Part shown: positions 6,365 through 63,970 of the stretch, piece after piece
Layout of the letters: the number at the start of each line of letters is the position of its first letter
How positions within the stretch are numbered: position 1 is the first letter of the stretch
DNA from: a virus
Direction: 5' to 3' (one strand)
DNA length: 64,000 nucleotides
Virus record (IMG/VR): IMGVR_UViG_3300027833_003138
Span: 32,001-96,000 of that record
The notes under the pieces: generated by a model
What the model saw: the letters and a program-made list of their open reading frames with translations, nothing else
Told to the model about the DNA's origin: nothing
The model's database searches: none
Made by a program: the position numbers and the translations under genes

Positions 6365-6438
6365 TTTTATATTTTACTTTTATCTTCCTTGTATATGATT
6401 TTGCTCTTGCTTGAATTTGTTATGTTCATGTCTTTATA

Positions 6439-6744: not shown

Positions 6745-6840
6745 TTAATTATATATTTTAATATTTGATATACCCAAGTGAAGTACCATGTACCGCACAA
6801 TAGAAGGCATATTATGTTGAAGCAATTTATTGGCACGAAT

Positions 6841-6993: not shown

Positions 6994-6994
6994 T

Positions 6995-7072
6995 TTATAC
7001 AAAATATACTAACATAATTATGATCCCTACAACAATACCCAATTCAATAAAGAATGTTAGTCTGCTCTTCAT
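6995..7072 (-). CDS. 25-aa single-TM microprotein
   Basis: MKSRLTFFIELGIVVGIIIMLVYFV; ATGA overlap with the uvdE stop. Confidence 0.5.
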   Translation of the reverse strand: MKSRLTFFIELGIVVGIIIMLVYFV

Positions 7073-8088
7073 CCGTATAACGCTTTTTGCAGTAAGCGAA
7101 TAGCTTTGTCTTTGCCTTTAACTTCACATTCCCACTTTGCGGGTCTATCTACATCTATCGCAATATGAGGGGGGGTATTTCCAAGAGCGAAATAATCTGC
7201 GTGCGCTCTTGGTTTTTCGGGCTTACCTTCAGACCAATGAAATACAGGAGCAAAATAATCTGCCACTGCCTCGCATTCATCGTCATGCGGTTTATCTGTA
7301 TTTACCCATGTGTAAGCACATCTCTCTGCTTGAAATGTAATATTGCGTTCTTCTGATGGATTGCAAAAATCATGTAAATTGTCATAGCAGACAGGTATTT
7401 GAGCTCCGAATGTATCGTATAAGTGGTCGCTAAATTTTATGCAGTTATCTACATTAAAGAAACCTTTGTCTTCGTTTTCTATAGTTATTCGTTTGTAAAC
7501 TCCTTTATCGCACATAGAAAGATTGCGGAAGAATCTGGTAGCGACAATCTCTAATGTTTCATCTGCTTGTGGAGTGTAATTAATGTGAATATTCATTGGG
7601 GCACTATGATCTTGAGGTAAGCCTAATTGGTCAAGGACACTTGCTTGAAAATTTAATTCATTTATCGTTCGCTTTACTGCATCTTTATTATTTGACGCAA
7701 GAACATTAAATTGATCGGGGTGAGAGCCGATAGAAATCCTCAATGTTCGAGCAATTAATCCTGCTTGCCTTAATTCCTGTTTGATCGTGGCGTAATTCGG
7801 AAGGTCTTCAAGAGATATTTCCAAAGTTTGATCGGTAAGGAGAGGAAAAAGAGAAGAGCTAAGGCGATAATGCCTAATATTTGTGGCACTGCAATGATTG
7901 ATAATATATTGAGTAACAATAACATTGTGCAAAATTCTTTCAGAGAGTTGACTAAGGGCTTCATTTCTACTTTCTGAGTTACACAAATCATTGAATCTCT
8001 TGCGAGTCATTGTGCGAAATGAGTATTTCTTTTTGTCTTTATCTTTGAGTTCCTCACTAATGCAAGTTAGTCCTAGTATTGTTGTCAT
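7069..8088 (-). CDS. uvdE: UV DNA damage endonuclease UvdE/UvsE
   Basis: LGLTC, YRLSSSLFP, HPDQF, IHI, IENED, DNLHD, H.SE, HAD and EVKGKD motifs of the UvdE TIM barrel; promoter TTGACA-N17-TATACT 8096-8124. Confidence 0.9.
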   Translation of the reverse strand: MTTILGLTCISEELKDKDKKKYSFRTMTRKRFNDLCNSESRNEALSQLSERILHNVIVTQYIINHCSATNIRHYRLSSSLFPLLTDQTLEISLEDLPNYATIKQELRQAGLIARTLRISIGSHPDQFNVLASNNKDAVKRTINELNFQASVLDQLGLPQDHSAPMNIHINYTPQADETLEIVATRFFRNLSMCDKGVYKRITIENEDKGFFNVDNCIKFSDHLYDTFGAQIPVCYDNLHDFCNPSEERNITFQAERCAYTWVNTDKPHDDECEAVADYFAPVFHWSEGKPEKPRAHADYFALGNTPPHIAIDVDRPAKWECEVKGKDKAIRLLQKALYG

Positions 8089-8135
8089 GTTTTATAGTAT
8101 AACACCTCGAATGGTGGTTGTCAAGCGTTTTCTGG

Positions 8136-8140
8136 GTGTA
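8136..8140 (+). promoter_or_regulatory. putative late promoter motif GTGTA
   Basis: 9 nt before ATG 8150; recurrent motif. Confidence 0.6.
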
Positions 8141-8149
8141 TATAGCTTT

Positions 8150-8386
8150 ATGGAAATTGAAGAAATAGTATTGATTGCGTTAGGAACAATGGTGTCTGTT
8201 GTGGCATTTTTCCTAAAAAAAGAAAATGTACGAGTTGAGAGGTTGAGCGAAAAAATTAGAAATCTAGAAATCTCTTTAGCTAAAAATGAAGCGAGAGATT
8301 GCGAAAGATGGATTCAGATATCCAAGCTTCTTGAGGATAGGAGAAATGATGTAATAAACTTATACAAAAGCATAAACAAAAAATAA
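8150..8386 (+). CDS. small membrane protein (N-terminal TM + coiled coil), possibly holin-like
   Basis: MEIEEIVLIALGTMVSVVAFFL then coiled coil; function inferred from topology only. Confidence 0.55.
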   Translation: MEIEEIVLIALGTMVSVVAFFLKKENVRVERLSEKIRNLEISLAKNEARDCERWIQISKLLEDRRNDVINLYKSINKK

Positions 8387-8616
8387 TATGCAAATGCTAG
8401 TGGATATATGGGAGGCTTTTTTGCTTATTTATCTTATAATTGCCATGGGAATGATATTTCTATTTAATAAATGATCGACAAAGCAACCCAAACTGATCTT
8501 TATATTTTAATCTCTTTGATTTTGTTTTTTATTGAGAGGGAGGCTGTTATTGAAGTTGCGTTCTTTATTATAGAAATGTTTTTTTTACTAATGTCGTTGT
8601 GACTATTTCTTGGGAT

Positions 8617-9198
8617 TTACTTCAAGCTATCCCACTCTTCCCAATTTGCTAATTCTTGGGTTGAGGCTTCGCATTTCGGAATTGCCGTTTTTACCAAAAA
8701 ATCTGTAGTGCCTTGATCTGCAATTAATTTATTTTTAAATGCATCAAAAAACAATTGAAAACAGTCTATTCTTTCTTGAGGGAATTGAAACTCTTTACCT
8801 TTTGTGATTCTTCCCTTTTTAAGCCAAGTTAGTGGATGCTTGTTGCTTTTATTTGCATTGCAAGTCTTGCAAGATGGAATGATATTCCCTTCGTGCTCCA
8901 AGCCAAACATTGGGGGATTAAATAGCCTGCCATTTGTAGGCATAAAATGATCCATATCCTTAAAATCTTCCACACCGCAATACCAACATTTTCCATCGAC
9001 TATGATAGTTTTGAATATTTTTTTCTTTCTTATTTCATCTTCATCCGTCCATGTTGAAGGCTCAAAAAAAGCTACAAAATCTTTTATTAATCCATTGAGC
9101 ATACTATGTCCTCGAAATAGAATATTTGAGTTATATCTCTTTGTCATTTGTTTTTTTACATTTTTTAGAATATGTGCCCATTGCACAAAAGAATGCAC
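8617..9198 (-). CDS. HNH endonuclease (start uncertain)
   Basis: CWYCG...DHFMP...N...SCKTCNANK zinc/HNH signature. Confidence 0.8.
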   Translation of the reverse strand: MHSFVQWAHILKNVKKQMTKRYNSNILFRGHSMLNGLIKDFVAFFEPSTWTDEDEIRKKKIFKTIIVDGKCWYCGVEDFKDMDHFMPTNGRLFNPPMFGLEHEGNIIPSCKTCNANKSNKHPLTWLKKGRITKGKEFQFPQERIDCFQLFFDAFKNKLIADQGTTDFLVKTAIPKCEASTQELANWEEWDSLK

Positions 9199-9318
9199 AA
9201 GATAGGTATAAGAAAGAGAAGCTGTAATTAACTTTCAAGAGTTGTACGCATAGGATAAAATTTACAATCATGCACACAATGCATGATTTACCTAATAAGT
9301 TGCAATGCCTCCAAGGTC

Positions 9319-9627
9319 TCATTCTAGACCATGATCTTTTTTGTCTTCATCTGTCCATTTTGGCGTATCCGAGCCAAAAAGATCGTCTATGACGCATGTT
9401 CCGAACTCTTCAACGGAATGGTTTTTAGGCATTAGGGATTGTATATAAGCTAGAACTTTTTTACCGACTTCTTCATGCACAGGAGAAAAAGCGTATGTTG
9501 TCATATCTAAGTCGCTACCATATCCAAATTCTAAAATAATGTGGCAATCATCTAGGACATCTTTATTTGTTATCGGGCAAGCGATATTTAAATCGTCATC
9601 ATAGAATGGATCTGTTTTTTTACTCAT
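9319..9627 (-). CDS. hypothetical protein (FGYGS.D motif)
   Basis: ORF starting 6 nt after TTGACA-N17-TAAACT (9634-9662). Confidence 0.7.
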   Translation of the reverse strand: MSKKTDPFYDDDLNIACPITNKDVLDDCHIILEFGYGSDLDMTTYAFSPVHEEVGKKVLAYIQSLMPKNHSVEEFGTCVIDDLFGSDTPKWTDEDKKDHGLE

Positions 9628-9668
9628 AATTAAAGTTTAGCATATTTTTTAAAAAATGTCAAGGAAAA

Positions 9669-9762
9669 TGGCGGAGAGAACAGGATTCGAACCTGCGGAA
9701 GGGCAATAAGCTCTTCAACGGTTTAGCAAACCGCCGCCTTAAACCAACTCAGCCATCTCTCC
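9669..9762 (-). tRNA. tRNA-Ser(GCU)
   Basis: GGAGAGA/TCTCTCC acceptor stem, anticodon loop TTGCTAA, long variable arm, GGTTCGAATCC, encoded CCA. Confidence 0.95.
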
Positions 9763-9766
9763 AAAG

Positions 9767-9842
9767 TGGAGCCACCTGTCAGATTCGAACTGACGACCGT
9801 TCGCTTACAAGGCGAGTGCTCTACCAACTGAGCTAAGGTGGC
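9767..9842 (-). tRNA. tRNA-Thr(UGU)
   Basis: GCCACCT/AGGTGGC acceptor stem, AGCTCAGTTGGTAGAGC D-arm, loop CTTGTAA, TTCGAAT, encoded CCA. Confidence 0.95.
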
Positions 9843-9844
9843 TT

Positions 9845-10078
9845 TTAAATTATTACACGATTTATATCGTTTTCAAGCTCTAAATTATCCCAATATTTAT
9901 GGTCGCATTCACTGTATTTTATATCATTAAATAAAATTATTACTGAATTTGGAGCATTTGATTCGATTTCGTAGCCTACTGCGTCTCCTTCGGGCACTCT
10001 TCCTCTGCCATTTGCGAACTCAAAGCATTCATCGGAGCCATGCTCAGAATATATTATTTGACTTGAATTTATATTCAT
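9845..10078 (-). CDS. hypothetical protein
   Basis: ORF ending 2 nt before tRNA-Thr. Confidence 0.6.
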   Translation of the reverse strand: MNINSSQIIYSEHGSDECFEFANGRGRVPEGDAVGYEIESNAPNSVIILFNDIKYSECDHKYWDNLELENDINRVII

Positions 10079-10341
10079 TTTTTTGTAATTCTTTCTCTGT
10101 TATTAACATGATTTTTCATTTCTTCGTATATTTTTCGTAAAATATCTTTTTGAGATAATATTCTCAACTTTGTTTCTTGATCGGATACTTTATTGTATTG
10201 TTTTTCTAGTACGTCTATCTGATCGGTGATTATTGAGCGATCAAATTCTCCTTTATAAGTCCATCCAAGATCAAAGCCTCTTGTTAAGCCTGTTTGGTGA
10301 GCCTTTTCAAAATCGTTATGTATTCCGTCGTCAAACATCAC
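10075..10341 (-). CDS. hypothetical protein
   Basis: ORF with ATGA couplings. Confidence 0.65.
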   Translation of the reverse strand: MMFDDGIHNDFEKAHQTGLTRGFDLGWTYKGEFDRSIITDQIDVLEKQYNKVSDQETKLRILSQKDILRKIYEEMKNHVNNRERITKK

Positions 10342-10721
10342 CTTGTTACCGAAAGGGGTTTAATCCAACCTTCTCCTGAGTGAAGTTTTGATGCGTGAAT
10401 TTTTGGTCTTGAGGTTAAATCTACAGCTTTAGCTAATTTTTGAGCCTCCAGAGGAGATACATTTAACTTTTTTCCATTTACCCAAATAACACAAGGAATG
10501 TGACCGTTAAGATTGAACGGATGCGGTATTTCATTAATTTGCACTTCAGATAACTTCACTATATTTGGCGTAAAGTTAGGGGCTGGAGTTGTCGGCAACA
10601 TTAAGGGAGGCGGAGGTGGAGCTTCTAGCTTGTCGAAATCTATATTTGCAACTTCTATTTTAGAAGATTCGCAACCAACAAAAAACAATAAAAATATAAT
10701 ATATAAACTACGCATTTTCAT
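10338..10721 (-). CDS. putative lipoprotein, Pro-rich
   Basis: Signal peptide with lipobox-like FVGC; poly-Pro tract. Confidence 0.6.
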   Translation of the reverse strand: MKMRSLYIIFLLFFVGCESSKIEVANIDFDKLEAPPPPPLMLPTTPAPNFTPNIVKLSEVQINEIPHPFNLNGHIPCVIWVNGKKLNVSPLEAQKLAKAVDLTSRPKIHASKLHSGEGWIKPLSVTR

Positions 10722-10874
10722 TTAAATACTCCTCTACGAATTGATTTGCTTTTTCGAATGCTTCGGGGTGATATTTTTTGCACCATTCTAGCACCCATTG
10801 ATTTACATATGTATTTATTAAGTCTTGTTTTTCTATATCTAATTTATATTTGTTTCCTGCTAGTTCGTTCATTT

Positions 10875-11132
10875 TTAAAATAAGTTTAATTGATTTGGGT
10901 CTTCTGTTTCTATCTCTTCGTTATTTTCTTGAGTTTGTTTGATTTTTGATTTTGTTGATCGCAGCCAATTTCTTTGAGCCATTCTAACAACAAATCTCAT
11001 AAATGCAAAGGCATAAATTTTATTTAGCTCTATAGTTCCGTTAAATCCATCGTGATCGTACAAAGTGAAGACCTTGCTTTCTTCGTTGTATTCAAAGGTT
11101 GCATTCTTTAGTTGTTTTGTTATTTTTCCCAT
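10875..11132 (-). CDS. hypothetical protein (C-terminal QLNLF, beta-clamp-binding-like)
   Basis: ORF after perfect promoter 11143-11171; ends QLNLF, like the QL[SD]LF clamp-binding motif. Confidence 0.6.
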   Translation of the reverse strand: MGKITKQLKNATFEYNEESKVFTLYDHDGFNGTIELNKIYAFAFMRFVVRMAQRNWLRSTKSKIKQTQENNEEIETEDPNQLNLF

Positions 11133-11142
11133 ATTTCCTATC

Positions 11143-11171
11143 ATTATATCACATAGAGATTATTATGTCAA
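11143..11171 (-). promoter_or_regulatory. consensus sigma70 promoter TTGACA-N17-TATAAT
   Basis: Exact consensus match. Confidence 0.85.
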
Positions 11172-11218
11172 GATTAAAAAACCCGCACCAACACTGGGTT
11201 TCGGGTGTATATATGATT

Positions 11219-11581
11219 ATGCTGAAAGGAAAAGAAAGACAAATGGTTCTTGATTACTTGTATCAAGAGTGCCTTATAAACTCGCGAGATTTCTTCGCTT
11301 CTAGGAAGAAAATGACCTGCAAGATCGAATCTCAATTGAGGTACGAGCATATATCGGGAAAAGAAAGAATAGAGATTTATAACAAAATAATAAAAAAGAA
11401 AATAATAAATTTCTTGATCGAATGTATGTCTCAATCTTTATCGATGGACTATGTTAATGGATCGCCAGACAAAAGAAAAATGAGAATAAATGAATGGGCG
11501 ACAAATAAATATCAAAACATGCCCAAAAACGAAAAAATCGCAATCTGTGAAAAGATGGGATTTAAATATTTAACTAACTAA
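11219..11581 (+). CDS. hypothetical protein
   Basis: ORF; start placed 9 nt after GTGTA at 11205-11209. Confidence 0.65.
   Translation: MLKGKERQMVLDYLYQECLINSRDFFASRKKMTCKIESQLRYEHISGKERIEIYNKIIKKKIINFLIECMSQSLSMDYVNGSPDKRKMRINEWATNKYQNMPKNEKIAICEKMGFKYLTN
11542..11581 (+). repeat. direct repeat copy 1 (32 bp exact, 38/40 extended) flanking cysC
   Basis: AATCTGTGAAAAGATGGGATTTAAATATTTAA also at 12421-12452. Confidence 0.9.
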
Positions 11582-11602
11582 AACAGAGTGTAATAAAAAA
11601 AC

Positions 11603-12406
11603 ATGAAAAGAAAAATTCTTATAATGGGACTTCCTGGATCAGGAAAAACAACATTAGCTGAAAAGCTTGTTGCTAAATTAAATGCCGCATGGTTTAACGC
11701 AGATGCAGTTCGTCAAGATATATATTCTGAACTTGGATTTTCTCCAGAAGATCGATTGTCTCATGCCACACGAATGGGAAAACTTTGTGATTGGGCAAAA
11801 ATAGGAGGTTCATATGTTATCGCAGATTTCGTATGCCCAACTCAAGAAACTAGAGCCGCTTTTGGTGCAGATTTTGTAATATGGGTAGATCGCATAATGG
11901 AGGGTAGGTATGAAGACACAAATAAAATGTTTGAAAGACCTATGAATTATGATTTAAGACTTACCGATGGAACTCCAGAAGAGTGGGTTGATAAAGTTGT
12001 TGAGAAATTAGACGAAACTGAAGCGTGGGATAATCAAGCTCCAACTGCGTTACTTATAGGTAGGTATCAACCATTTCACATCGGGCATAAGAGCCTTGTC
12101 GCTGAAGCCGTAAAAAGAACAGGCCAATGTTGCATTGCATTAAGAGATGTCGGCGGAATTGATGATAGTAACCCCTACGATTTTGAAAAAGTGAAAAAAG
12201 AAATACATTCTGCTTGTGTAGAATTCGGAAACAAAATTAAAGTTGTCGAACTCCCTAATATTATGGATGTATTTTATGGCAGAGGCGTTGGTTATAATAT
12301 CGAACAACTAGAACTAAGTAAAGAATTACAAGAAGTTTCTGCCACCAAAATCAGAGATGGTCAAATTGGTCAAGACGGAAAACCTTTAGGTAAGCGCCCT
12401 GAATAA
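11603..12406 (+). CDS. cysC: adenylylsulfate kinase fused to HxGH nucleotidyltransferase domain
   Basis: P-loop GLPGSGKTT, NADAVR, LGFS.EDR, DFVCP, FE.P; C-terminal GRYQPFHIGH and SATKIR. Confidence 0.85.
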   Translation: MKRKILIMGLPGSGKTTLAEKLVAKLNAAWFNADAVRQDIYSELGFSPEDRLSHATRMGKLCDWAKIGGSYVIADFVCPTQETRAAFGADFVIWVDRIMEGRYEDTNKMFERPMNYDLRLTDGTPEEWVDKVVEKLDETEAWDNQAPTALLIGRYQPFHIGHKSLVAEAVKRTGQCCIALRDVGGIDDSNPYDFEKVKKEIHSACVEFGNKIKVVELPNIMDVFYGRGVGYNIEQLELSKELQEVSATKIRDGQIGQDGKPLGKRPE

Positions 12407-36118: not shown

Positions 36119-36510
36119 TGGTGGACGCGGCGGGAGTCGAACCCGCGTCTTTAAATCTTAATAAGTGAGAATCTACAAGTTTAGTTAATTTTTTTTATAG
36201 TTGTGACATTAACATCTAACTTATTGTTTCAATTATTTGCCCCCGAATAATTCAGTGAACTACAGTTTATTAACAATAAAACCTTTTCTGTTTTTGCAGA
36301 TTGATGACCCCTCTCCCACCGTATCTGCGTCTGGCGGGGAGGGGTAGCAGGTGTTTAAGCTGCTAAGGCGAGCTGTTCAGCCTTTGGGCTGAAAGCTACA
36401 ACACGATTTTTATTCTTGCCATGTACAAGGTTGTGCCTTTTAACGAAGCCTGGCACCTCTTCGACTTGCATCATACTTAATCCAATTTAAATCAAATCCA
36501 GTACGCGCCC
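36119..36510 (-). ncRNA. ssrA: tmRNA
   Basis: 5' GGGCGCG pairs with 3' CGCGTCC-ACCA (G3:U70 Ala determinant); T-arm GCGGGTTCGACTCCCGC; tag ORF 36355-36420 GKNKNRVVAFSPKAEQLALAA*. Confidence 0.93.
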
Positions 36511-51072: not shown

Positions 51073-51882
51073 ATGTCAGACACAGCAACCCCAACAATAA
51101 ACGATACCCGCAAAAAACTGCGTGAAATTTACAGCTTCACTTTTGAAAAAGAAGAGAAGGTCAAGAAAACAGAGACGAGCAAAGTCAAGAACGAAGAAAC
51201 CGGCGAAGAGGAAGAAGTTTCTGTAACCAAGGAAGTGGTTGAGCCAATTCCTTATCGACTCATAATGAAGCAGCCAACTCGCAGACAAATAGAAGATGCC
51301 GAATTGGAATTTAGTGTCGAAATGAGTAATTGTATAAAGCGAGGAATTTTAACAAAAGCCATGCTCGCAAAAAAATACAGCGATACAGGTGGACTGCTTG
51401 CGGAAGAGGACGCAAAAGCTCTGACAAAAATGTACGTAAGGTATGGAGAATTCTCCCAGGAAAGCGAAAAGATTCAGATAAAAAATGTTAAAACAGAAAA
51501 GGATACAGCGCGATTAAAGGAAATCGCTGGAGAGATAGCTCTTTTAAGGAAAGATATTATTAATGTCGAGACTTCATATTCTAACCTTTTCAACCACACC
51601 GCTGACGTAAGAGCCGAGAATAAAGTTATTCAATGGTATATTTTAAATCTCACTTTTGTTCAGAAGTCTGACGAAGAGGAAATATCTCCTTTATTTGAGG
51701 GTCGCGATTTTGAGCAAAAGCTTCAAACTTATTACGAGCTTGAGGAGGAGGGGAACGATCTTTATGATATAGTCGGAGGAAAGGTTGCCGCATTTTTTAG
51801 CTTTTGGTATTACAGTTCTGGCGCAGTTTCGAAACTAGATTTCGAAAAGCTAGACAAAGATATCGAGGACGGTAGTATTTAA
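51073..51882 (+). CDS. putative tail assembly chaperone
   Basis: Acidic, helical, upstream of TMP. Confidence 0.5.
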   Translation: MSDTATPTINDTRKKLREIYSFTFEKEEKVKKTETSKVKNEETGEEEEVSVTKEVVEPIPYRLIMKQPTRRQIEDAELEFSVEMSNCIKRGILTKAMLAKKYSDTGGLLAEEDAKALTKMYVRYGEFSQESEKIQIKNVKTEKDTARLKEIAGEIALLRKDIINVETSYSNLFNHTADVRAENKVIQWYILNLTFVQKSDEEEISPLFEGRDFEQKLQTYYELEEEGNDLYDIVGGKVAAFFSFWYYSSGAVSKLDFEKLDKDIEDGSI

Positions 51883-51887
51883 TATAT

Positions 51888-52874
51888 GTGGAAGCGGTCA
51901 AGCGCAGAAAGATATTTAGGGATGTAGTTAGAGGTTACTCTTCCACAATTCTTGACGAGGACTTTGTTTACATCAAGCACTTGACTCCGCACGACCAAGT
52001 AGAGCTTGAAGAGATAGAGGAAAAATATTTTAACGCAGCCCTTCGTCGGGGCGTGCCCACAGAAGAAGAGATGCTTGCTTTTTTAAAAGAAGAGGGAGAC
52101 TGGGGAGACAAGGACGAAAAATTCATAGAGGATAAGGAGTATTTTCTTGAAACTTTAAAGACCGCCAAAACAAAAATGGTTATCAAGAACCAGATTGACA
52201 AGCAAGAAAAAACAATAGAAGAAGAAACCCTCGCACTGAATCAAAAACTCGCTCAGAGGATGTCTCTTGTTGGAAACACTTGCGAGAAATATGCAAAAGA
52301 TAGATTAAATGATTTTTATATGATTAAAAGTTTTTATAAAGATAAAGATTTATTGATTCCTTTATTTGGTGAAGATGAATTTGATGAATTAGAGAATCAA
52401 GATTTAAAGAAAATAGTTTCTCGTTATAACGATGTCTTTAAGAGCTTTAATGAAGAAAATATACAATATACTATATTAGAAGATTTTTATAATCCATATT
52501 TAAGTTTTGCTGAAGATAGTATGCAATTTTATGGAAAGCCGTTTTGTGATTTAACATACAATCAAATAAGATTAATTGTATATACTAGAGTATTTAAAAA
52601 TATATTTGATAATAATGAAAATATACCAGAGAATATAAGAAAAGATCCCGCGAAACTGTTAGACTTTGGAGGCTCCTCAAAAGAAGAGCGAGACAAAGCC
52701 AAAGACAAACTAAATCAAGGTAGCGCTGGAACTCTAGTTGGGGCTAAGGATGAGGATTATGAGTATCTTGGGGTGGACAAGCCTAAGGGAGGAGTAAGTC
52801 TTCACGAAGAAGCCAAAAAGAAGGGCGGAACTTTAAATATGGAAGATTTAATGAAATTGCATGGAGTAGGATAG
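51888..52874 (+). CDS. putative tail assembly chaperone
   Basis: Immediately upstream of TMP. Confidence 0.5.
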   Translation: MEAVKRRKIFRDVVRGYSSTILDEDFVYIKHLTPHDQVELEEIEEKYFNAALRRGVPTEEEMLAFLKEEGDWGDKDEKFIEDKEYFLETLKTAKTKMVIKNQIDKQEKTIEEETLALNQKLAQRMSLVGNTCEKYAKDRLNDFYMIKSFYKDKDLLIPLFGEDEFDELENQDLKKIVSRYNDVFKSFNEENIQYTILEDFYNPYLSFAEDSMQFYGKPFCDLTYNQIRLIVYTRVFKNIFDNNENIPENIRKDPAKLLDFGGSSKEERDKAKDKLNQGSAGTLVGAKDEDYEYLGVDKPKGGVSLHEEAKKKGGTLNMEDLMKLHGVG

Positions 52875-52912: not shown

Positions 52913-55900
52913 ATGTCTATAAATCTCAATGTAACAGGTAATACGCAACCGCTTGAAGCGGCTGTTCAAGCGGCTGTAAACCGTATTCGCAAAACACCGA
53001 TCAAAATAACGGTGGACGACAAGGGAGCTACTCAGCCGCTTGGAAATATGAAACGCGGAGCTGATGAGTTTAGCAAATCTATGGAAGCTGCTAACGCTCG
53101 TATCATTGCGTTTGGCGCAAGTATGGCGATAATAAATGGAGTAGCTGACGGCTTTAAGGCCTTAGTTAAAAATGTTGTTGAAGTCGAAAAAGCCCTTGCC
53201 GATATCAATGTAGTGATGAATTTATCTACAGCGAATTTAGAAAAATTCTCAAACGGCTTGTTTAAAACCGCCAAGGAAACTGGAGCAGCTTTTAACGTTG
53301 CCGCTGAAGCAGCTACCGAATATGCTCGTCAAGGCTTGACAATGGAAGAGTCTTTAAAAAGAACTCGAGACGCTCTTATTTTGACCCGATTAACTGGAAT
53401 GGATTCTGCAAATGCAGTAAAAGCTTTAACTGCAGCCATGAATACTTATGGAGATCAAATAAAAGACACTACTCAGTTGGTAAGTAAGTTTGCCGCTGTT
53501 GATGTTAAATTTGCGGTTAGCGCTGAGGACTTTGCGGATGCTATATCTCGTACTGGACAAGCAGCAAGAAGCGCTGGAGTAGATATTGATGAATTGGTTG
53601 GTCTTGTTACTGCGGCTCAGCAGAAAACCGCTCGAGGTGGTAAAGTAATCGGAAACTCATTTAAAACAATTTTCACAAGAATAGGAAGAACAGACACTTT
53701 AAATCAATTGGAAAATCTGGGTATCGCTGTAAGAGATTTGGAAGGCAATACGATTGGCGCAAGAAGAATTTTAACCGATCTCGCTAACACTTTTGATCAT
53801 CTTACGGAATCTCAAAAAGCACAAATAGCTCAGACGGTTGGTGGAGTTTTTCAAATCAATATATTAAAAGCTGTGTTGAGTGACGCTGCAAAGCAAAACG
53901 GTATACTTGCAAACGCTACTCAAATCTCTGCAGGGGCCACCACAGAAGCTATAGACAAAAACGATCAATTAAGGCAGACCATGTCTGCAATGGCCACAGA
54001 AACCGGACTAGCTTTAAAGGAATTAAGTGCACAGATTGGAGAAATTATGCTTGCTCCGGGAATGGAAAAGGTTTTGAATGTTTTTAAGGGACTGGCTGAA
54101 GGAGCAAATGAAATGCTTGGCGGTGGAGAATCCACTGGTAGCGATTTCGCTCAAGGTTTTTTAAAGGGCTTGGGTAATATCATAACTGGTCCAGGGTTGG
54201 TCGTTATTTCCGCAGTATTTATAAAGTTATTTGCTAAAGCTTTGGTTTATGCGAATCAAAGTCTGCAATCTTTAATTGGGGTAACAAGCGAAGCTCATAA
54301 ACAAAAAGCAATACAAACTTCTCTTGTTACTTTATTTGGGCAAAACGCAGCGATAAGCAAGGAAATGTTGCGAACCGATATTTCAAGAACGGAAAAGGAA
54401 AAAATAATCCTTGGACTCTTGAAGGCTCAAGTTGTTGAAGCTAACATGTTGAACTCTGTATCAAAAAGCGTTGCTTCTAGTTTATACACGAAAGGTTACA
54501 ATGCAAGCCTTGCCCCTCGAAAGGGAAGAGCGGGCGGACACATTCCAAATTTTGCAGATCCAGAACGCGAGCAAGCTGCGCGAGGTGGATATGCGGCTGG
54601 AACAATTCGTTCGATGAATATGCCTGGCGAAGGCTCGGTGATATATAACAGCGCAGAAAAAGTAAAGAATTTTAAGGGGATGAGTCAACCTGCGATCATG
54701 CCTCCTCATTCAAGCAAAGCTGGAAAAAATTATCAACAAGCATTTGGTAGTATACATGGATTCGATCCATATGCAGCAGGAGGGTATATACCGAACTATG
54801 CGAGAGTAAAAGATGTTCCAAATACTTATATGGATGTCCGAGCTTTTAAACAATTCGCAGGAATAAGAACTGGCGCTTCCTCGAGTAATACTAAGGCCAC
54901 GGGAGCATATAACACCCTTCGTCAATACGCAGAAACAAATAAACTTCAAAATTTATCTCCGGCAGCGCTTGTAAAGTCTTATAAAGGAAGCCAAACCCTA
55001 AAGAGCCCAAAAAAGTCTTTAGCCGCAATGCTTGTTCCCCCTGAAGGTTATAGTGGCAAGCCTTTTGCTAGCTACAGCGATCTTACGTGGCCAGTCTATT
55101 CCTTAAGGCCTGACGCTCAAACCGACCCATCTTTAAGCAAAATGGTTGAGGGTGACTTCAAGTCGACGGGAAGTAAGTATGCTTCAAGAATCTCCAAAGT
55201 TCTAGAGAGGGGGCCAGTTAGTGAAAGTAAGATTTGGAAAACTATGCAGTCGGACACTGCTGGCGGAGCAAAAGGAGCATGGAAAGCTGCGGTAGGAGCT
55301 TTATTTGAAGCCGCAGTTAATTCCGCTTTAGATTATAGAAGTAAAGGGAGAGGTAAGGATGAGGGAGACTTCGATGTTCGAGGTGGGGATATAGGGATAT
55401 TGTCAACAGCTTTTGATGGTTTTCCTGAGGGTATGACATTAGCCGATTACAAAAGCGATGACCGAAGTCCAGGAAATAAAGCTTCTTTTAGAAAAAAAGT
55501 ACTTAAGCAACTTAAATTTAATAAATCCCAACAGCAAAACAAACTCAAACCAGGAAATTACGCCTCGGGGTTTATACCTAACTTCGCCGCAGCACGGCTA
55601 GCTCTCACGGGTGGATTGGTTGGAAAAAACAAATTTGGCAATATAGATCGCAGGCAGATGACAAGACTGGTAAGATCTAATCCTTACTTCAACGGCTTGA
55701 TGAATGAACATCTTACATGGGACAGTTTTCCGAAAAAAGATAAGCGTAAATTAAGCGGGTGGCTACTCAAACAAGGGGTGTCTAACCGAGCCTTGCAAGC
55801 GTATGGTCTTGCAAGCATGCATTCAAAATCGATCGGAGAGGGAATCTCAAACTTAGCTATGGCGAAAGGCTTTATTCCCAACTTTGCTAACCCATTATCA

Positions 55901-58900
55901 GATGCAATAGGTCGAGAGAAAGCTGCAGGGGTTCCTGTTTCACAAATTCGTGTTGGCTCACACGGCGCGCTCATGGGTAAGAGTAACCCCCTCGGCCTCG
56001 GCGTAACCAATACGCAAGACGAACCAAATGGTCTGCGCGATGTAATTGGTGCAGCAGGCGGGTTTGTGCCGAATTATGCAGAGCCCGGCTTCCAAAGAAC
56101 AGATGTAAACATTAAAGGCAGGAGAAAGCAAGATAAGCTTGTCGAAAAATTAAATCGAGAGCTAGAAAAGTATACAAACGCCTTTAAAAAAGGTCAACTC
56201 TCTCAGAAAAACTTAACCCAAGGAATAAAAAACCTTAATCAAAAATACGGCTTAAGCGAACAAACACAAAAGAGAGTCTTGAAAGAGACGAACAACTCTA
56301 TAACTGCAACTCAAAAACTTAATGCAGCAAGACTAAGTACTACAAAAGCTTTAAGCGGCGGCGCCAAGGGAGCTATGGGGCTATGGGGAAAGGCGAACTC
56401 GAAAATAGAATCGTCCGCTTTAGGTAAAGGTTTAAGCTCCACAGGCGGCCAAATGGGCTTGATGATGGGAGCCCCTATGCTCGCTGGAATGCTTCAAGGC
56501 GACGGAATTGGAACAGTAAGCGACACTAGTTATAAAGCGGGAGGGGTTGCTCAGGGGTTGGGCACTGGCGCCGCAATGGGTATGATGTTTGGACCGTTAG
56601 GTACTATTGTGGGGGGTACTATTGGTGCTTTTAAGGGTCTTGTGGACGCATCCAACGAACTCAAGGAAGCTCAAGAAAAAGCCATTAAAATTGCTAGAGA
56701 ATCAAGCGTTCAGACTGGCGCTGCTCTCGGCCAATCATTAGCTCCCGCTTTAGCTAAAACAGATTTTGGAAAAGGCGGTGCGGTCAATTTTTCTTTTGCA
56801 GGAAAGCAAAGAGAATTAGATCTAGATAGCCCTAATCAGTTATCCACACGAAACGTCGAAGCGGGGCGATTTGGTATGAAAATGGGAGAAAATGTTAGGA
56901 GTCAAATGTTGGGTGGCTTAGATTTTGATTTAAAAAAATTGGTTGATGATTCGCGTGGGGGAAGATCTTTTGCTGAGCTTTCTAAAAATTTGTCTAAAGC
57001 TGGCTTAAGTGGAACGGTGGTAGATAAAGAATTTTTAAAGGACGCTTTGTATGAAGAATATGATCCGGACTCAGAGTATGGAAAAACAAAAGCGAGAGGT
57101 GGGCCAGAAGCAATTAAAAGAATTGAAGATCAGATCCTAGCTCAAATGGGGTCTGCTGCTAGGCCTGAAGCAATTAAGGCCGCATTAGATCAATTACCCG
57201 CTGATATGAAAATTCAAACTGCAGCGCTAGAAAAAGGCTCAACCGCAGGAGGGAGGTTCTTTGACAAAGGCGCTCTCGAATATTTTACTCCCGAAGAATT
57301 AAAAAGACAAATCGACAAAGGTGACATTACGCAGGTCGCAAAAGCTTATGAAGATATTTTAAAACAAATCGACACCCAGAAAGAGGTAAACGCAGAAAAT
57401 AATAAAGCCGTAATCCTCCAACTCAATGCTCAACGAGCAATGGTAGCCGCTCAGCAAGAGACTCGGGATATACAATTCAATATAAAATCTTCATATGCAA
57501 AAATCGGCAGCTCATTGTCTTTGCAAGCTAAAATCATGGGTAATTTTGCTACCGAGCAACAAAAAGCTCAATTAGATTATACAAAAGCAATCAACAAGGC
57601 TGCGCAATCATATGCTACCGGAGCTCAATCAGAGCAGGGTAAATACAGACAAGGTATGCTCGCTTTCTCTAAAAACGATAATATTGCTTCTGCTTTAAAA
57701 ACAAGCTTAGCTCGGAAAAATTTAGTAGAACAGGCTGAACGTTCAGAAGATTTAGCTGGTCAATTTCCTAAGGACTCAGCAATCGAGGCAAAGGCTGAAC
57801 AGATAGATTTAACAAATGAACTAATTAAACTATCAAATGAAGAATTATACGCAGAATTAAAAAAAGCAAATTTAAACACCGTGCAACTTCAAGCACTCGA
57901 AGACTACAAAAACAGCAAAGAAAAAAATATTGAATTATTAGTAAAAGAATTAGACCTATCCAACTCAATTGCAGAAAGTGAAAAGATAATAAATGATGCT
58001 ATTGCAAGAAGAAAAGATTTAATTGCCGATGCGTCCACCGCAATTGGCATGTCTGATAAGCAACTCGCCCATAATCAAAAAATGCGAAGTTTTGCTGATA
58101 AGCTTGCCGCAGCGCAGAGATTAACCGCTTTTGGACCAGGATTTAAAACAGGAAAAGAGCAAGAAGATTTTAAAATGAAAGAAAAGCAATTTACTCTCGC
58201 AAGTTCCGCTATAACTTTAAGAAAAAATGCTAAATCTGCGGTCAATAAAAAAATAAAAGAACGCACCGATCTCGAACTGCAACAACAGACAGCTCAAGAA
58301 AGAATCACGGCTCTGAAAGGGGGCGCCGAGTCAACTATCGAAAACGAGCAAAAAAAGTTAGAGGCGCTTCTTATTAAACAGCAACAGAATCTTGCTTTTA
58401 TAGATCATGAAATAAAAAACATTAACGAATCAACAGAGGTTGAAATATCAAATGCCCAAAAACTCTTAGAAGAAGAGAAAAAAAGATTAAAACTTAAGAG
58501 GGAATACGAAACCGGACCTGGCGCAATGCGTAATGGAGCTCGCGATGCTCAAAAAAGAATTGTTGAGCAGGCTGAAACGATGGAGCTTAGGCTCGGAGGT
58601 GAATTAACAAATCAATTTAGAGACGGCCTTGTTGACGGTATGCAAGCAGCAATAAATAAAGCCGATGACTTGAGCGATGTTATGAATAATATTGCAATGA
58701 ATTTTCTTGGAGCAATTCAACAAGCTTATCTTGGTAAAGCCGCCGATGCAATCGTTGGAGCTTTACCGTTTTCTAGCGGAGGAGGAGTAAGAAAATATTC
58801 TAAAGGAGGCGGAGTTCCTGCAATGGTTACTAATGGCGAATATGTAATGGGTCGCGACGCTGTGAAAAAATACGGTGGCGGATTTATGCATAGATTAAAC

Positions 58901-59881
58901 GCAGGCGGAAAACTTCCAGGTTATTCAACTGGAGGTAAGCCAGACGAGCCTCAGCCAGGATCCGCTCTCGCTTCAAACTTTGGAGGAGGAGAAGGTTACA
59001 ACACAGGAAGAAGATATCAATCTCAAGCAATGTCTGGATTTTTCTACAGCGGACAAGCTGGGAACGTAGGACTTCAAGAAGATACTCAATATACAAAAGG
59101 TATCATTCAAGAAAGAATGAGAAAGGAAGCTGAGAAAAAAGCCAAAAAAAGAGCTTTAATGCAAATGATCGTAGGTACCGCTCTGAGTGTTGGAATTGGA
59201 TCTCTCGCTAACGCCGGAATTGGGGCAATGGCAGAATCTGGAGCCTTAGGGGGAGGAGCTCAACAGCAAGCCTTATTGAAAGCTGCTCCAGAGGGAACTT
59301 TTGGCCCAATGGACCCTAGTTCCGCTAGAAGATATGGAGGTTTCAGCGCACGCTTAAATCAAAACTTTGGGGGTAATGGATCATGGTCTTGGAACAAGAG
59401 TGAGCAGGATGGGTTCTCGAGCCAAGACCTAAGAAGCTTGCAGCCAGATTTTTTTCGTGGAGGAAGAGTGGGTAAATACGCCAACGGCGGCCACATAGCT
59501 GGCAAGTCTGGCATCGATCAAATTCCCGCAATGCTCAGCGAAGGAGAGTATGTAATTCGCGCAAGTAGCGCTCGACAGCTCGGCAAACCAATGCTCGACC
59601 GAATAAATGCAGGAAAATTCAATGATGGTGGAGCAGTGACCCCCTTAACAGAAAACTCAGAAACTGGAACTTCTGGCGGAAATACAAATAATATTAATAT
59701 AACGGTTAATATGGACAAGGGAAGTGGGAAATCAGAAAAAAAGGATGATAAAGCAGGAGCCAATCCAAAAGACTCGTCAGAAGATCAAGAAAAAAGCACG
59801 CAGTTGGCGGAAAAAGTAAAACAACAAGTTATTTCTGTGATAATGGACGAGCAGCGACCAGGAGGCTTGTTGAGTGACTGA
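52913..59881 (+). CDS. tail tape measure protein (TP901-like core) with inserted domains
   Basis: 2322 aa Ala/Gly-rich helical; EYARQG, IGNSFKTIFTRI core; C-terminal (F/Y)xxGG and AMLSEGEYVI motifs. Confidence 0.9.
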   Translation: MSINLNVTGNTQPLEAAVQAAVNRIRKTPIKITVDDKGATQPLGNMKRGADEFSKSMEAANARIIAFGASMAIINGVADGFKALVKNVVEVEKALADINVVMNLSTANLEKFSNGLFKTAKETGAAFNVAAEAATEYARQGLTMEESLKRTRDALILTRLTGMDSANAVKALTAAMNTYGDQIKDTTQLVSKFAAVDVKFAVSAEDFADAISRTGQAARSAGVDIDELVGLVTAAQQKTARGGKVIGNSFKTIFTRIGRTDTLNQLENLGIAVRDLEGNTIGARRILTDLANTFDHLTESQKAQIAQTVGGVFQINILKAVLSDAAKQNGILANATQISAGATTEAIDKNDQLRQTMSAMATETGLALKELSAQIGEIMLAPGMEKVLNVFKGLAEGANEMLGGGESTGSDFAQGFLKGLGNIITGPGLVVISAVFIKLFAKALVYANQSLQSLIGVTSEAHKQKAIQTSLVTLFGQNAAISKEMLRTDISRTEKEKIILGLLKAQVVEANMLNSVSKSVASSLYTKGYNASLAPRKGRAGGHIPNFADPEREQAARGGYAAGTIRSMNMPGEGSVIYNSAEKVKNFKGMSQPAIMPPHSSKAGKNYQQAFGSIHGFDPYAAGGYIPNYARVKDVPNTYMDVRAFKQFAGIRTGASSSNTKATGAYNTLRQYAETNKLQNLSPAALVKSYKGSQTLKSPKKSLAAMLVPPEGYSGKPFASYSDLTWPVYSLRPDAQTDPSLSKMVEGDFKSTGSKYASRISKVLERGPVSESKIWKTMQSDTAGGAKGAWKAAVGALFEAAVNSALDYRSKGRGKDEGDFDVRGGDIGILSTAFDGFPEGMTLADYKSDDRSPGNKASFRKKVLKQLKFNKSQQQNKLKPGNYASGFIPNFAAARLALTGGLVGKNKFGNIDRRQMTRLVRSNPYFNGLMNEHLTWDSFPKKDKRKLSGWLLKQGVSNRALQAYGLASMHSKSIGEGISNLAMAKGFIPNFANPLSDAIGREKAAGVPVSQIRVGSHGALMGKSNPLGLGVTNTQDEPNGLRDVIGAAGGFVPNYAEPGFQRTDVNIKGRRKQDKLVEKLNRELEKYTNAFKKGQLSQKNLTQGIKNLNQKYGLSEQTQKRVLKETNNSITATQKLNAARLSTTKALSGGAKGAMGLWGKANSKIESSALGKGLSSTGGQMGLMMGAPMLAGMLQGDGIGTVSDTSYKAGGVAQGLGTGAAMGMMFGPLGTIVGGTIGAFKGLVDASNELKEAQEKAIKIARESSVQTGAALGQSLAPALAKTDFGKGGAVNFSFAGKQRELDLDSPNQLSTRNVEAGRFGMKMGENVRSQMLGGLDFDLKKLVDDSRGGRSFAELSKNLSKAGLSGTVVDKEFLKDALYEEYDPDSEYGKTKARGGPEAIKRIEDQILAQMGSAARPEAIKAALDQLPADMKIQTAALEKGSTAGGRFFDKGALEYFTPEELKRQIDKGDITQVAKAYEDILKQIDTQKEVNAENNKAVILQLNAQRAMVAAQQETRDIQFNIKSSYAKIGSSLSLQAKIMGNFATEQQKAQLDYTKAINKAAQSYATGAQSEQGKYRQGMLAFSKNDNIASALKTSLARKNLVEQAERSEDLAGQFPKDSAIEAKAEQIDLTNELIKLSNEELYAELKKANLNTVQLQALEDYKNSKEKNIELLVKELDLSNSIAESEKIINDAIARRKDLIADASTAIGMSDKQLAHNQKMRSFADKLAAAQRLTAFGPGFKTGKEQEDFKMKEKQFTLASSAITLRKNAKSAVNKKIKERTDLELQQQTAQERITALKGGAESTIENEQKKLEALLIKQQQNLAFIDHEIKNINESTEVEISNAQKLLEEEKKRLKLKREYETGPGAMRNGARDAQKRIVEQAETMELRLGGELTNQFRDGLVDGMQAAINKADDLSDVMNNIAMNFLGAIQQAYLGKAADAIVGALPFSSGGGVRKYSKGGGVPAMVTNGEYVMGRDAVKKYGGGFMHRLNAGGKLPGYSTGGKPDEPQPGSALASNFGGGEGYNTGRRYQSQAMSGFFYSGQAGNVGLQEDTQYTKGIIQERMRKEAEKKAKKRALMQMIVGTALSVGIGSLANAGIGAMAESGALGGGAQQQALLKAAPEGTFGPMDPSSARRYGGFSARLNQNFGGNGSWSWNKSEQDGFSSQDLRSLQPDFFRGGRVGKYANGGHIAGKSGIDQIPAMLSEGEYVIRASSARQLGKPMLDRINAGKFNDGGAVTPLTENSETGTSGGNTNNINITVNMDKGSGKSEKKDDKAGANPKDSSEDQEKSTQLAEKVKQQVISVIMDEQRPGGLLSD

Positions 59882-61681: not shown

Positions 61682-63970
61682 ATGACAATCTCCGCTCCAG
61701 CCTCGGACGTTTCTGAAGGAAGAATGGGAAACCTTGTTAATTATAGCGGGGTTTTTCAAACAGGACAAAATTACGAACAATTTGATTTTGTTTATGCTAC
61801 GGGTGATGGGTTGTATTATTACGCAAAGCAAAATATGGTTTTTGGCGGCGGAGTCTCTGTGTCGGACAATCAAAGATTTACATTGCTTCCTCACGAGGTA
61901 GCAGCTAATTCTCATTATATTATTGATGAGTTTAATAGGCCCGACGATCTAAACGCAACATTTAGCCCTGGAAATATAATAAATATAGCTGGGTCTACTG
62001 GGTCTAGCGATGGAACTTATTCTATATTAAATATAGAAAAAAATTATACAAGTACCACCGTTCAAGGTTTAACTGGTGCAGCAATAAAAATAAAAGGGAC
62101 ATCTGAAACTAGTTTTATAGAAAATTACGAACCTTCGTCTGCTAATGTTCTAACAATCTCAACAATCAATGCGTATCCTGAATCTAATCCAGATTTGTGG
62201 ACAAGTAATAAGTTTTTTTACGACGCAGATTATGGATCAACAGTTAATTTTAAGGCAAATAATATAAAACATGAGTATGGTAATGGTTATTATATTCTGC
62301 AGCCAAAAGGCATAAATGCATTAACGTTTGAGGTTAATTTAAAATTCGACAACAGAACAAATAAAGAAGCTAATTCTATAATACATTTTGTAGAAAACCA
62401 TTTGGGGCAATTAGAGGTTGACTCCTCCTCTCCTAACCTTAAATATAAACAAGGAATATCAGGGTTTCGATGGGACGGAAACGCGATGTTTAATCCTTAT
62501 CGATCGACAGAAAATGAAGCTAAGACTTTTTATTGCTCAGAATTTAATCATGCTTTAAGTTTTGAGAACAGTAACAATATAAGTTTAAAACTTAGAAATT
62601 TAGACACTTCTTCGTTGAGGAAATCTGAGCAGTTGTTTATAAGGAAAGCAGAAACGTTTGACCCGACAATGGTTTACGAGAAAAATGATGTAGCTTTTTA
62701 TACTGGTAACCATTCATACTATTATTGGCACAGCGATTCAAGTACCAGTAATAAAGTTCCTTCTGAGATAACTACGGGTTTTAATGGCAGGCTTGATTAC
62801 AAGAAAGATTTACATACAGGTTACTGGACTCGCGATTTCTTTTGGAGGCCATCTTTAGGGCTAAGCGTTGATCAAAAGCCAAGAATGAACGAAATAGAAC
62901 TGGGAGGATACCTTCAGATTTATAACGACGGCATAAATGAAAGCCTTTTAAATTTGGACTTGCAGTTCAATAATAGAGATGATGAGGAAGCTTACGCTAT
63001 ACTTCATTTCCTTGAGCAAAGACTAGGTTACAAACCTTTTAATTTTACGCCTCCCGCCCCATATAATAGAAAGCAAAACTTTGTGTGTCAGGAGTGGAGC
63101 CACACTTATAATTACAAAAATAATCATAGCATATCTGCTCGATTCGAGCAGTTTCCATTTAATATAGATGAGCAGGATTTTACCAATTTAGACACTCCTC
63201 CAGAATTGGCAGAGGGAGAATTAATATTCACCTCTCCGTTGTCGTTTTCGATCAAGGACCAAGGAGAACAAATAATTCCCGGAGAAAAAGGAAAGGGTAG
63301 GGTTAAGTTAATGAATATAGGAGATAAACCCTTGACGTTAATTAGTGCAGAAGCGATAGAGAGAGACATTGGGTCTTTTTCTATTATAGGGCAGGGCGGA
63401 GGCGCAAACGTTCCTTTTATTGGCGAAGGTCTTGATAAAGAAGATTACATATATAACCTTCCGTCTGCCGGTTTTCCTTTTGGTCTAAACGGCAAAACAA
63501 TAAAACTAAGCAAGTCTTATACACCTGGCGTTAGTGATGGCGGGCAGATGTTTACGGTGGTCACAGGTTCCCCTGGTAACTACAGATCCGAAATAGTTAA
63601 TTCAGTTCCAAACACTTTTTTTCAAAACAACAGAGGGCAAATAAAATCCGGAGTAAGTGAGCCGTTTAATACTGCATACAGGGAGTGCGGTAAATTTGCG
63701 ATTGAGAATTTCTTTATCAATAATCAAAAGACCACAATCGAGGCAGGAGAGGAAGGCTATATTGATATTGAGTTTTATGGAATCAATGACTCGGACGTAA
63801 ATGTTTTTTTGGTCGATGAATTCACGGACAATATAATAGACAATAATTCAGACTTTATTCTTGTGGGCCTTACAAATAAATACTATTTTGGAGATTTGTA
63901 TATAAGAAGCTCTGCTTCAAGCGACCTTCAACAAGGCGAGTTAAAAATATTCGTCGCAGCAGAAAAATAA
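61682..63970 (+). CDS. minor tail protein with two lambda gpM/Dit-like domains
   Basis: Twice FF....S......G.GY.....GIN.....L.F.NR...EA..I.HF.E...G...F. Confidence 0.7.
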   Translation: MTISAPASDVSEGRMGNLVNYSGVFQTGQNYEQFDFVYATGDGLYYYAKQNMVFGGGVSVSDNQRFTLLPHEVAANSHYIIDEFNRPDDLNATFSPGNIINIAGSTGSSDGTYSILNIEKNYTSTTVQGLTGAAIKIKGTSETSFIENYEPSSANVLTISTINAYPESNPDLWTSNKFFYDADYGSTVNFKANNIKHEYGNGYYILQPKGINALTFEVNLKFDNRTNKEANSIIHFVENHLGQLEVDSSSPNLKYKQGISGFRWDGNAMFNPYRSTENEAKTFYCSEFNHALSFENSNNISLKLRNLDTSSLRKSEQLFIRKAETFDPTMVYEKNDVAFYTGNHSYYYWHSDSSTSNKVPSEITTGFNGRLDYKKDLHTGYWTRDFFWRPSLGLSVDQKPRMNEIELGGYLQIYNDGINESLLNLDLQFNNRDDEEAYAILHFLEQRLGYKPFNFTPPAPYNRKQNFVCQEWSHTYNYKNNHSISARFEQFPFNIDEQDFTNLDTPPELAEGELIFTSPLSFSIKDQGEQIIPGEKGKGRVKLMNIGDKPLTLISAEAIERDIGSFSIIGQGGGANVPFIGEGLDKEDYIYNLPSAGFPFGLNGKTIKLSKSYTPGVSDGGQMFTVVTGSPGNYRSEIVNSVPNTFFQNNRGQIKSGVSEPFNTAYRECGKFAIENFFINNQKTTIEAGEEGYIDIEFYGINDSDVNVFLVDEFTDNIIDNNSDFILVGLTNKYYFGDLYIRSSASSDLQQGELKIFVAAEK

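Follow-up and report, generated by a model that had tools for sequence, protein, structure and literature searches.

A repeated linker peptide follows each module in the tape measure protein of an uncultured phage and marks the borders at which modules are exchanged

The subject of this report is the tape measure protein (TMP) whose gene lies on a 64,000-nucleotide (nt) stretch of viral DNA, referred to below as the window, which corresponds to bases 32001-96000 of a 140-kb IMG/VR viral contig (IMGVR_UViG_3300027833_003138; completeness estimate 79%). We conclude with high confidence that this protein consists of an assembly part (amino acids (aa) 1-541), then four independently folding modules, A to D, and then a variable helical part with a lambda gpH-like C-terminus. 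Each module is trailed by a short peptide, which sits in a disordered linker, is kept by selection at the protein level, and marks the junctions at which alleles of module B have been exchanged and optional modules, such as C, have been gained or lost. The features on which this rests are as follows; pLDDT denotes the predicted local distance difference test score of the structural model described below.

52913..59881, + strand: TMP gene, 2322 aa (open reading frame (ORF) and translation, PF10145, PHROG families).
53267..53845, + strand: PhageMin_Tail domain, aa 119-311 (PF10145), inside the conserved N-terminal part, aa 1-541.
54533..54556, + strand: motif copy 1, GGHIPNFA (GHIPNFA from 54536); in-frame scan, pLDDT <50.
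54557..54781, + strand: module A, aa 549-623; near-invariant, modelled as a beta-hairpin and a helix, pLDDT 44-72.
54782..54802, + strand: motif copy 2, GYIPNYA, with YAAG just before it; in-frame scan, the main homology breakpoint.
54803..55567, + strand: module B, aa 631-885; hypervariable alpha/beta domain, pLDDT >90 in the 561-aa model.
55568..55588, + strand: motif copy 3, GFIPNFA; in-frame scan, left border of a natural 300-nt deletion.
55589..55867, + strand: module C, aa 893-985; optional, all-helical, pLDDT 81-91.
55868..55888, + strand: motif copy 4, GFIPNFA; in-frame scan, right border of the natural 300-nt deletion.
55889..56059, + strand: module D, aa 993-1049; near-invariant.
56060..56080, + strand: motif copy 5, GFVPNYA; in-frame scan, end of homology to relatives.

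The protein was recognised as a tape measure by PF10145, which scored 100.7 bits against a cut-off of 33.2 (E 1.3e-28), and by eleven PHROG tape-measure families (best E 2.4e-50); its gene is placed in the tail block, 5' of the tail-tip genes. When Pfam and PHROGs were run on the whole TMP and on expanded relatives, the N-terminal tape measure domain alone was recognised.

A preliminary description of this DNA had reported five copies of the peptide, and all five are present in frame in the ORF 52913-59881 (position 54533 for the first copy counts the preceding Gly). They conform to A-x-G-[FYH]-[IV]-P-N-[FY]-A, start at aa 542, 624, 886, 986 and 1050, and are spaced 82, 262, 100 and 64 aa apart from motif to motif, in agreement with the earlier figures of about 80, 260, 100 and 64. 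The core G.[IV]PN[FY] occurred on average 0.002 times in 20,000 shuffled versions of the TMP, as against five times in the real one, and in all six frames of the window and of the complete 140-kb genome no copy was found other than those in the TMP ORF. From 452 copies in 121 proteins the consensus A(93%)-x-G(100%)-[Y38/H32/F28]-[I65/V35]-P-N-[F67/Y33]-A(95%)-x-P(46%) was obtained, in which the I/V, P, N and F/Y positions were set by the search pattern itself; a looser pattern showed that the terminal Ala can be replaced and that G-aromatic-[IV]-P-N-aromatic is constant. One copy stands behind every module, regardless of the identity of that module, and none is found in the helical ruler part. 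A text search of 8.4 million papers for the motif string found no relevant one, and a keyword search for a TMP polyprotein likewise found nothing relevant.

At the nucleotide level the five copies agree at 12-16 of 21 nt, with mostly synonymous differences, therefore selection acts on the peptide and not on the DNA. This bears on the earlier proposal that the motif might be a recombination delimiter, since a primarily DNA-level recombination site would account for the coincidence of homology breakpoints with the motif described below. However, the synonymous differences speak against such a site, and 21 nt at about 70% identity would be a poor substrate for homologous recombination, so that part of the proposal had to be given up as very improbable. 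The peptide is apparently derived from a widespread TMP element, [FY]-A-x-G-G-[FYH]-[IV], to judge by its sequence: motif 2 (YAAGGYIPNY) resembles YATGGYVG of lambda, and motif 1 (RAGGHIPNFA) resembles YANGGHIAG in the C-terminus of the TMP itself.

An AlphaFold2 model was made of aa 520-1080 (561 aa, 66 aligned sequences, mean pLDDT 73.6). All five motifs fell in stretches with pLDDT <50 (model residues 1-46, 105-113, 363-386, 453-472 and 533-539), and they are therefore predicted to be linear peptides in flexible linkers between foldable domains; residues 48-74 of the model form a further low-confidence segment. Modules B and C were globular rather than coiled-coil in the model, and modules A and D had pLDDT values of 44-75. 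Module B, which gave a mean pLDDT of 77.5 when modelled alone, was predicted to be a helix-rich alpha/beta domain and module C to be all-helical, so that the earlier characterisation of the segments between the motifs as non-helical does not hold. Comparison of A with D for homology aligned the motif alone, and searches of PDB sequences with modules A, C and D gave nothing meaningful.

Evidence for the exchange of modules came from the relatives of the TMP, of which 878 were found using aa 520-1080 as query. The N-terminal part (aa 1-540) had a median identity of 80% and was detected in 114 relatives, module A 89% (119 relatives) and module D 88% (120 relatives). Module B had a median identity of 43% and was detectable by BLAST in 42 of 120 relatives, and module C, with a median identity of 92%, was present in 28 of 120. 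In individual proteins the order of these identities was reversed: P0045 and P0066 are 99% identical over aa 1-540, yet their B is undetectable by BLAST; in P0003 module B is 91% identical and the flanks 84-85%; and in P0074 and P0079 module C is 93% identical and the flanks 45-58%. Recombination is therefore required to explain these proteins. Using blastn, DNA homology to six related contigs was seen to end at aa 627-633 and to restart at aa 887 or 985-988, with breaks also at aa 1055-1056. In the closest relative, L002 (IMGVR_UViG_3300046170_000502, 6435-12400), the sequence absent between motifs 3 and 4 is exactly module C. Across 91 loci there were 146 homology end-points between aa 560 and 1100; 132 of them lay within 4 aa of a motif, against the 11% of this interval that the motif windows occupy, and the suggestion that the motif delimits modules was thus borne out. 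The TMP gene of L002 has a longest open frame of 1506 aa, and DNA homology to the C-terminal third of the TMP goes on 3' of that frame; this copy of the gene may be split, frameshifted or mis-assembled.

Breakpoints at domain borders would also be expected from selection alone, if the motif were a passive joint, that is, a turn or hinge that any insert needs in the trimer, with other recombinants being non-viable. The predicted lack of structure in the motif suits such a joint, but it is rare for a passive linker to be constant at six positions in proteins whose identity elsewhere is 45%, and we consider this explanation improbable.

The same borders were seen in the environment. Logan contigs from four marine metagenome runs, belonging to four studies, were compared with the module region. 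Contigs from three of the studies (X2, X3 and X9; about 97% identical in module B) join 55588/9 directly to 55889/90, which amounts to an in-frame loss of 300 nt (55589-55888) that removes module C together with one motif. Run X9 holds both forms, one contig with module C and one without it. Loose ends of contigs, running into unrelated sequence, start at 54802, 55580, 55868/55874 and 56079, each at a motif, and one of these continuations encodes the start of another B allele, which is found in L021. Four lines of evidence, independent of each other, therefore support module swapping at the peptide: the mosaic proteins, the breakpoints in DNA homology, the indel variants in the environment and the family-wide variation in copy number described next.

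A search with module D among 1.84 billion proteins returned at least 815 cluster representatives (50% clusters) at E<=1e-3, with 315 remaining at E<=1e-10; their length is mostly 1500-5354 aa. Among the matches listed, the long proteins carried 1-18 motif copies, mostly 3-6. The largest number, 18, was found in P0159 (5354 aa), with 13 each in P0141 and P0197; the modules of these three proteins are mostly unique and of 30-490 aa. When 736 inter-motif segments from 257 proteins were grouped by BLAST, about 90 families resulted, 64 of which were singletons, and the common ones were D (238 segments), B (191), A (141) and C (29). Thus the motif is kept among relatives while the inserts vary in number (1-18 copies) and identity (about 90 families). 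Pfam recognised no module family in the TMP, in the relatives scanned (P0159 was left out of the scan) or in 43 members of B. When 14 more distant TMPs were tested with a profile hidden Markov model (HMM) of B, 11 proved to contain B in full length (E 1e-21 to 1e-49), which shows B to be a single domain family of many alleles rather than a position for unrelated cargo. Searches for stand-alone homologs of B (137-559 aa) and C (51-163 aa) yielded TMP fragments only, or nothing. The earlier idea of swappable effectors therefore survives in part: B alleles are exchanged and C is optional, but A and D form a near-invariant core and B is a single family.

Matches from deposited phages were confined to aa ~50-475 of the TMP, and aa 542-1056 had no match among 50,697 deposited phage records. 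Species-representative bacterial genomes gave two matching fragments only, both in one Flavobacteriaceae metagenome-assembled genome (MAG). The source names of homologs include Crocinitomicaceae and Bacteroidetes MAGs and TARA (among them the names for P0004 and P0112), and marine metagenome runs also match. Because of these names, the Flavobacteriaceae MAG and the marine runs, there is a weak indication that the TMP comes from a marine phage of Bacteroidota, with a host probably in the Flavobacteriia. The phage itself is uncultured, with a genome of roughly 180 kb and a lambda-like tail tip.

Module B is the hypervariable part of the array, and the preliminary description had likened it to a PD-(D/E)XK nuclease. 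The strings on which this was based (GALFEAAV, DFDV and ADYK) do occur in the 262-aa segment. The conserved core of the module is the following:

55295..55498, + strand: conserved core of module B, G795, E799, D819, D845-x-K847 and K862 (alignments of 20 and 43 sequences).

G795, E799, (D/E)845, K847 and K862 were invariant in both the 20- and the 43-sequence alignment, at 13-25% identity, and D819 was invariant in the 20 sequences and, after realignment on h-D-h, in the 43. The model places E799 on a helix, D819 before a short strand, (D/E)845-x-K847 on a strand and K862 on the next helix, so that the order and the predicted secondary structure of these residues agree with the PD-(D/E)XK order. 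This agreement, E ... D ... (D/E)xK ... K throughout 43 sequences at ~20% identity, is an argument for a nuclease that would be injected with the DNA. To it may be added that the restriction enzyme Bse634I, the only nuclease in the VIA-align list of structural matches, aligned over 102 residues that cover the conserved region of B (Z 3.5, root-mean-square deviation 4.2, rank 49). However, the fold and profile searches did not support it. Pfam, run on the 43 B sequences singly, found no PD-(D/E)XK clan family at E<=5 and gave scattered single matches with E>=0.007; the B profile matched designed repeat proteins only among PDB sequences; the ESM Atlas gave no usable match with B; Foldseek with B reached at best E 0.77 (PDB) and 0.67 (BFVD), with none at E<=0.001; and VIA-align over 48,161 chains reached Z 4.5 at best, or 3.5 on a second look, with none at Z>=5. 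Searches with the 561-aa model likewise gave none at Z>=5 or E<=0.001. In addition, the canonical core's first strand is absent from the model of B, a helix lies between the D and (D/E)xK strands, and the domain was not found outside TMPs. The residue order of the earlier proposal thus stands throughout the family, whereas the searches found no fold, HMM or PDB match to a nuclease, and an injected nuclease seems possible but unlikely. In our reading, the conserved charged site of B is real and is most simply taken as an active or a metal-binding site, and the fold that holds it has no detectable relative. With such a site and fold, the module is a candidate for a new enzyme or for a new domain that binds a ligand. 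The E...D pair was also considered as lysozyme-like, a reading dropped because the fold searches gave no match at Z>=5 or E<=0.001.

What the peptide does was considered separately. We rank a proteolytic cut first, followed by the docking of a chaperone, a handle for tail assembly, the passive joint and, last, the DNA-level site. Tentatively, then, we favour the peptide being a processing signal for each module, at which a site-specific cut of the kind known from T5 pb2 would be made. T5 pb2 is cut after R1127, between a hydrophobic stretch and an enzymatic domain (Linares et al. 2023, PMC10038345). Its site, ANSFVPR/AEGG (cut at the stroke), has in common with motif 5, AAGGFVPNYAEPG, the Ala at -4, F-V-P and an A-E-x-G tail. 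Moreover, a conserved junction peptide in a linker predicted to be accessible stands at every module border. Cleavage is suggested by this linker position and by the likeness to the pb2 site, and from the alignment with T5, in which an aromatic-V-P-x stretch precedes the cut, its probable position would be behind the invariant Asn. Nodaviruses and tetraviruses cleave after an Asn, by cyclisation of its side chain, in the maturation of their capsids. Such a cut would free the modules from the ruler, either after tail assembly or after ejection, and the tape measure would then double as a polyprotein that brings ready-made proteins into the host envelope or cell.

A bolder form of this proposal, which we regard as possible though unlikely, is that the TMP is a programmable delivery polyprotein. 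The cut, self-catalysed via the Asn or made by a host protease, would then release into the host, at DNA entry, 3 to 17 interchangeable and so far unrecognisable proteins, and B would represent a new class of enzyme that diversifies in an arms race.

Several points weigh against a proteolytic cut. The likeness to T5 consists of three identical residues and one Ala at a single mapped site, and T5 has Arg in place of the invariant Asn of the motif and Ser in place of its invariant Gly. Five cuts would sever the N-terminal part with PF10145 from the ruler. No candidate protease was found, where the genome-wide search was for Peptidase_C13 only, supplemented by Pfam on ten ORFs neighbouring the TMP, which was silent for proteases; neither a phage-encoded parvulin nor a legumain-type peptidase was present in the genome. 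Cargo does not in fact need cutting, as gp96 of Thermus phage P23-45 is full-length in virions (PMC10770324). Finally, a docking motif fits the same facts equally well.

The docking partner could be a periplasmic chaperone or prolyl isomerase of the host, of the SurA/parvulin type. Chaperones would bind beside each module as the unfolded TMP leaves the tube, preventing it from sliding back or aggregating and helping the modules to refold. This idea stems from a phage-display heptamer, WEYIPNV, which binds the P1 domain of E. coli SurA with a dissociation constant of 1-14 uM, SurA preferring Ar-X-Ar-X-Pro, where Ar is an aromatic residue (PMC7195389, PMC11401910). The commonest form of the motif, GYIPNF/Y, matches WEYIPNV over Y-I-P-N; Ar-[IV]-Pro occurs in all copies, and the 19% of copies with Tyr at -3 have the exact Ar-X-Ar-X-Pro. 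The motifs also lie in disordered linkers next to foldable domains, and the likely hosts, Bacteroidota, are diderm. Genome injection by HK97 is said to need periplasmic FkpA along with the TMP (Cumby 2015, as cited in PMC5099701). Set against this, the resemblance was seen post hoc. As a ligand, WEYIPNV is artificial; it was obtained with SurA from E. coli and not with a protein of the host, and it has no known link to a phage protein. Gly -2, Ala -4, Ala +4 and the Asn are left unexplained by the preference of SurA. Docking of this kind is in our estimation unlikely, if the most plausible substitute for a cut.

Somewhat less likely still, the peptide might be held by a putative partner within the tail itself, either a tail assembly chaperone or the inside of the tube wall, so that bulky modules are kept unfolded and in register in the roughly 4-nm lumen during assembly. 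Three 28-kDa B domains cannot fit folded side by side in a siphophage-type tube, which counts in favour of such a handle. The presence of one motif per module, whatever the module, also speaks for it, as does the resemblance to the common TMP element, which recurs in lambda gpH and at the C-terminus of the TMP. Two ORFs (51073-51882 and 51888-52874) lie at the position expected of chaperone genes, but no frameshifted pair of the G/GT type was recognised, and the helical ruler part has no copy of the motif.

It is established that TMPs can contain embedded domains (TM4, T5), that they can be cleaved (lambda, T5) and that one has an active enzyme (P23-45 gp96). The processing of T5 pb2 into pb2* and pb2C is a close parallel to the favoured proteolytic reading, being a TMP with an embedded functional domain that is separated by one defined cut, after which the cut peptide stays in the tail. 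However, T5 has one site as against 5-18 in the proteins described here, its cargo is a recognisable C-terminal metallopeptidase, and module swapping is described for the present family and not for T5. Involvement of the host in the T5 cleavage is named in the title of a reference cited in PMC12617516 and PMC10038345. Lambda gpH is cut into gpH* and gpHC in a glycine-rich region, at a site and by a protease given there as unknown (PMC12617516). It has in common with the present protein the [FY]AxGG ... GE[FY]V C-terminal elements, and a gpM-type gene also lies downstream here; it differs in having neither inserted globular modules nor the P-N-[FY] motif, and in its length (853 aa vs 2322 aa). 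In lambda gpH (L095, aa 727-790), FATGGFTG and YATGGYVG stand around GEFVF, in the unresolved gpHC part near the unmapped gpH* cleavage region.

Embedded domains that vary between related phages, namely small Rpf-like and peptidase domains, are also found in mycobacteriophage TMPs (Piuri and Hatfull 2006, PMC1796659); those carry recognisable muralytic motifs, and no shared delimiting peptide is known to have been reported for them, whereas the modules here are silent in Pfam. P23-45 gp96 is a TMP fused to a virion RNA polymerase that works in the host after ejection (PMC10770324); it differs in being a single N-terminal enzyme, without an array fenced by a motif. Polyvalent proteins are of giant size and have many domains; they enter together with the DNA, and processing into units has been proposed for them (Iyer et al. 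2017, PMC5512222). The present family has many unrelated modules, none of them a known effector or MPTase peptidase domain, and the carrier is a tape measure, which is never mentioned in that paper. The swapping of variable modules at a conserved peptide also has a parallel outside phage tails. In polymorphic toxins, a peptide (VENN in CdiA, DPxGL in Rhs) marks the border of the exchanged variable modules. There is, however, no domain recognisable by Pfam as a toxin together with an immunity gene here, and no additional orphan cassettes bearing the motif were found in the 140-kb genome.

New in comparison with these systems are the rule that one invariant peptide follows every insert, which applies to 815 or more clusters of proteins from the sea and other waters, and the exchange of whole inserts at that peptide, with up to 18 copies per protein. 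If the peptide is a cut or docking signal, it would offer a handle on how and where tape measures are processed, the site and the protease being as yet unknown for lambda; the approximately 90 unannotated module families would constitute a pool of proteins probably delivered into cells; and a natural scaffold for loading proteins into phage tails would be suggested.

Outside the module region, the following features were noted.

54158..54259, + strand: hydrophobic segment 1, aa 416-449 (Kyte-Doolittle, 19-aa window, maximum 2.11).
56576..56632, + strand: Gly-rich hydrophobic segment 2, aa 1222-1240 (hydropathy).
58769..58942, + strand: first lambda gpH-like C-terminal element, [FY][AS]xGG ... 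GEYV ... LNAG (comparison with lambda gpH).
59150..59224, + strand: hydrophobic segment 3, aa 2080-2104 (hydropathy).
59477..59632, + strand: second lambda gpH-like C-terminal element, YANGGHIAG ... GEYVI ... INAG (comparison with lambda gpH).
61682..63970, + strand: tail-tip gene with a lambda gpM-type domain (PF05939, E 1.1e-25, at aa 386-490; phrog_14, minor tail protein).

The module array is bordered on both sides by hydrophobic segments (aa 416-449 and aa 1222-1240), and the two gpH C-terminal elements, of the general form [FY][AS]xGG ... GE[FY]V ... N-A-G, lie within the last 370 aa of the TMP. Two ORFs between the TMP and the gpM-type gene (293 and 305 aa) had no Pfam or PHROGs match. 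Upstream, the ORFs at 51073-51882 and 51888-52874 (+ strand; 269 and 328 aa), which occupy the position expected of tail assembly chaperones, had no family match and no obvious overlap of the G/GT type. The gpM-type domain is central in the 762-aa product of 61682-63970, lambda gpM being far smaller. Elsewhere in the window there are genes for tRNA-Ser and tRNA-Thr (9669-9842, - strand) and for a full-length phage-encoded transfer-messenger RNA (36119-36510, - strand; Rfam RF00023, 140 bits), whose tag peptide, as given by ARAGORN, ends in ALAA.

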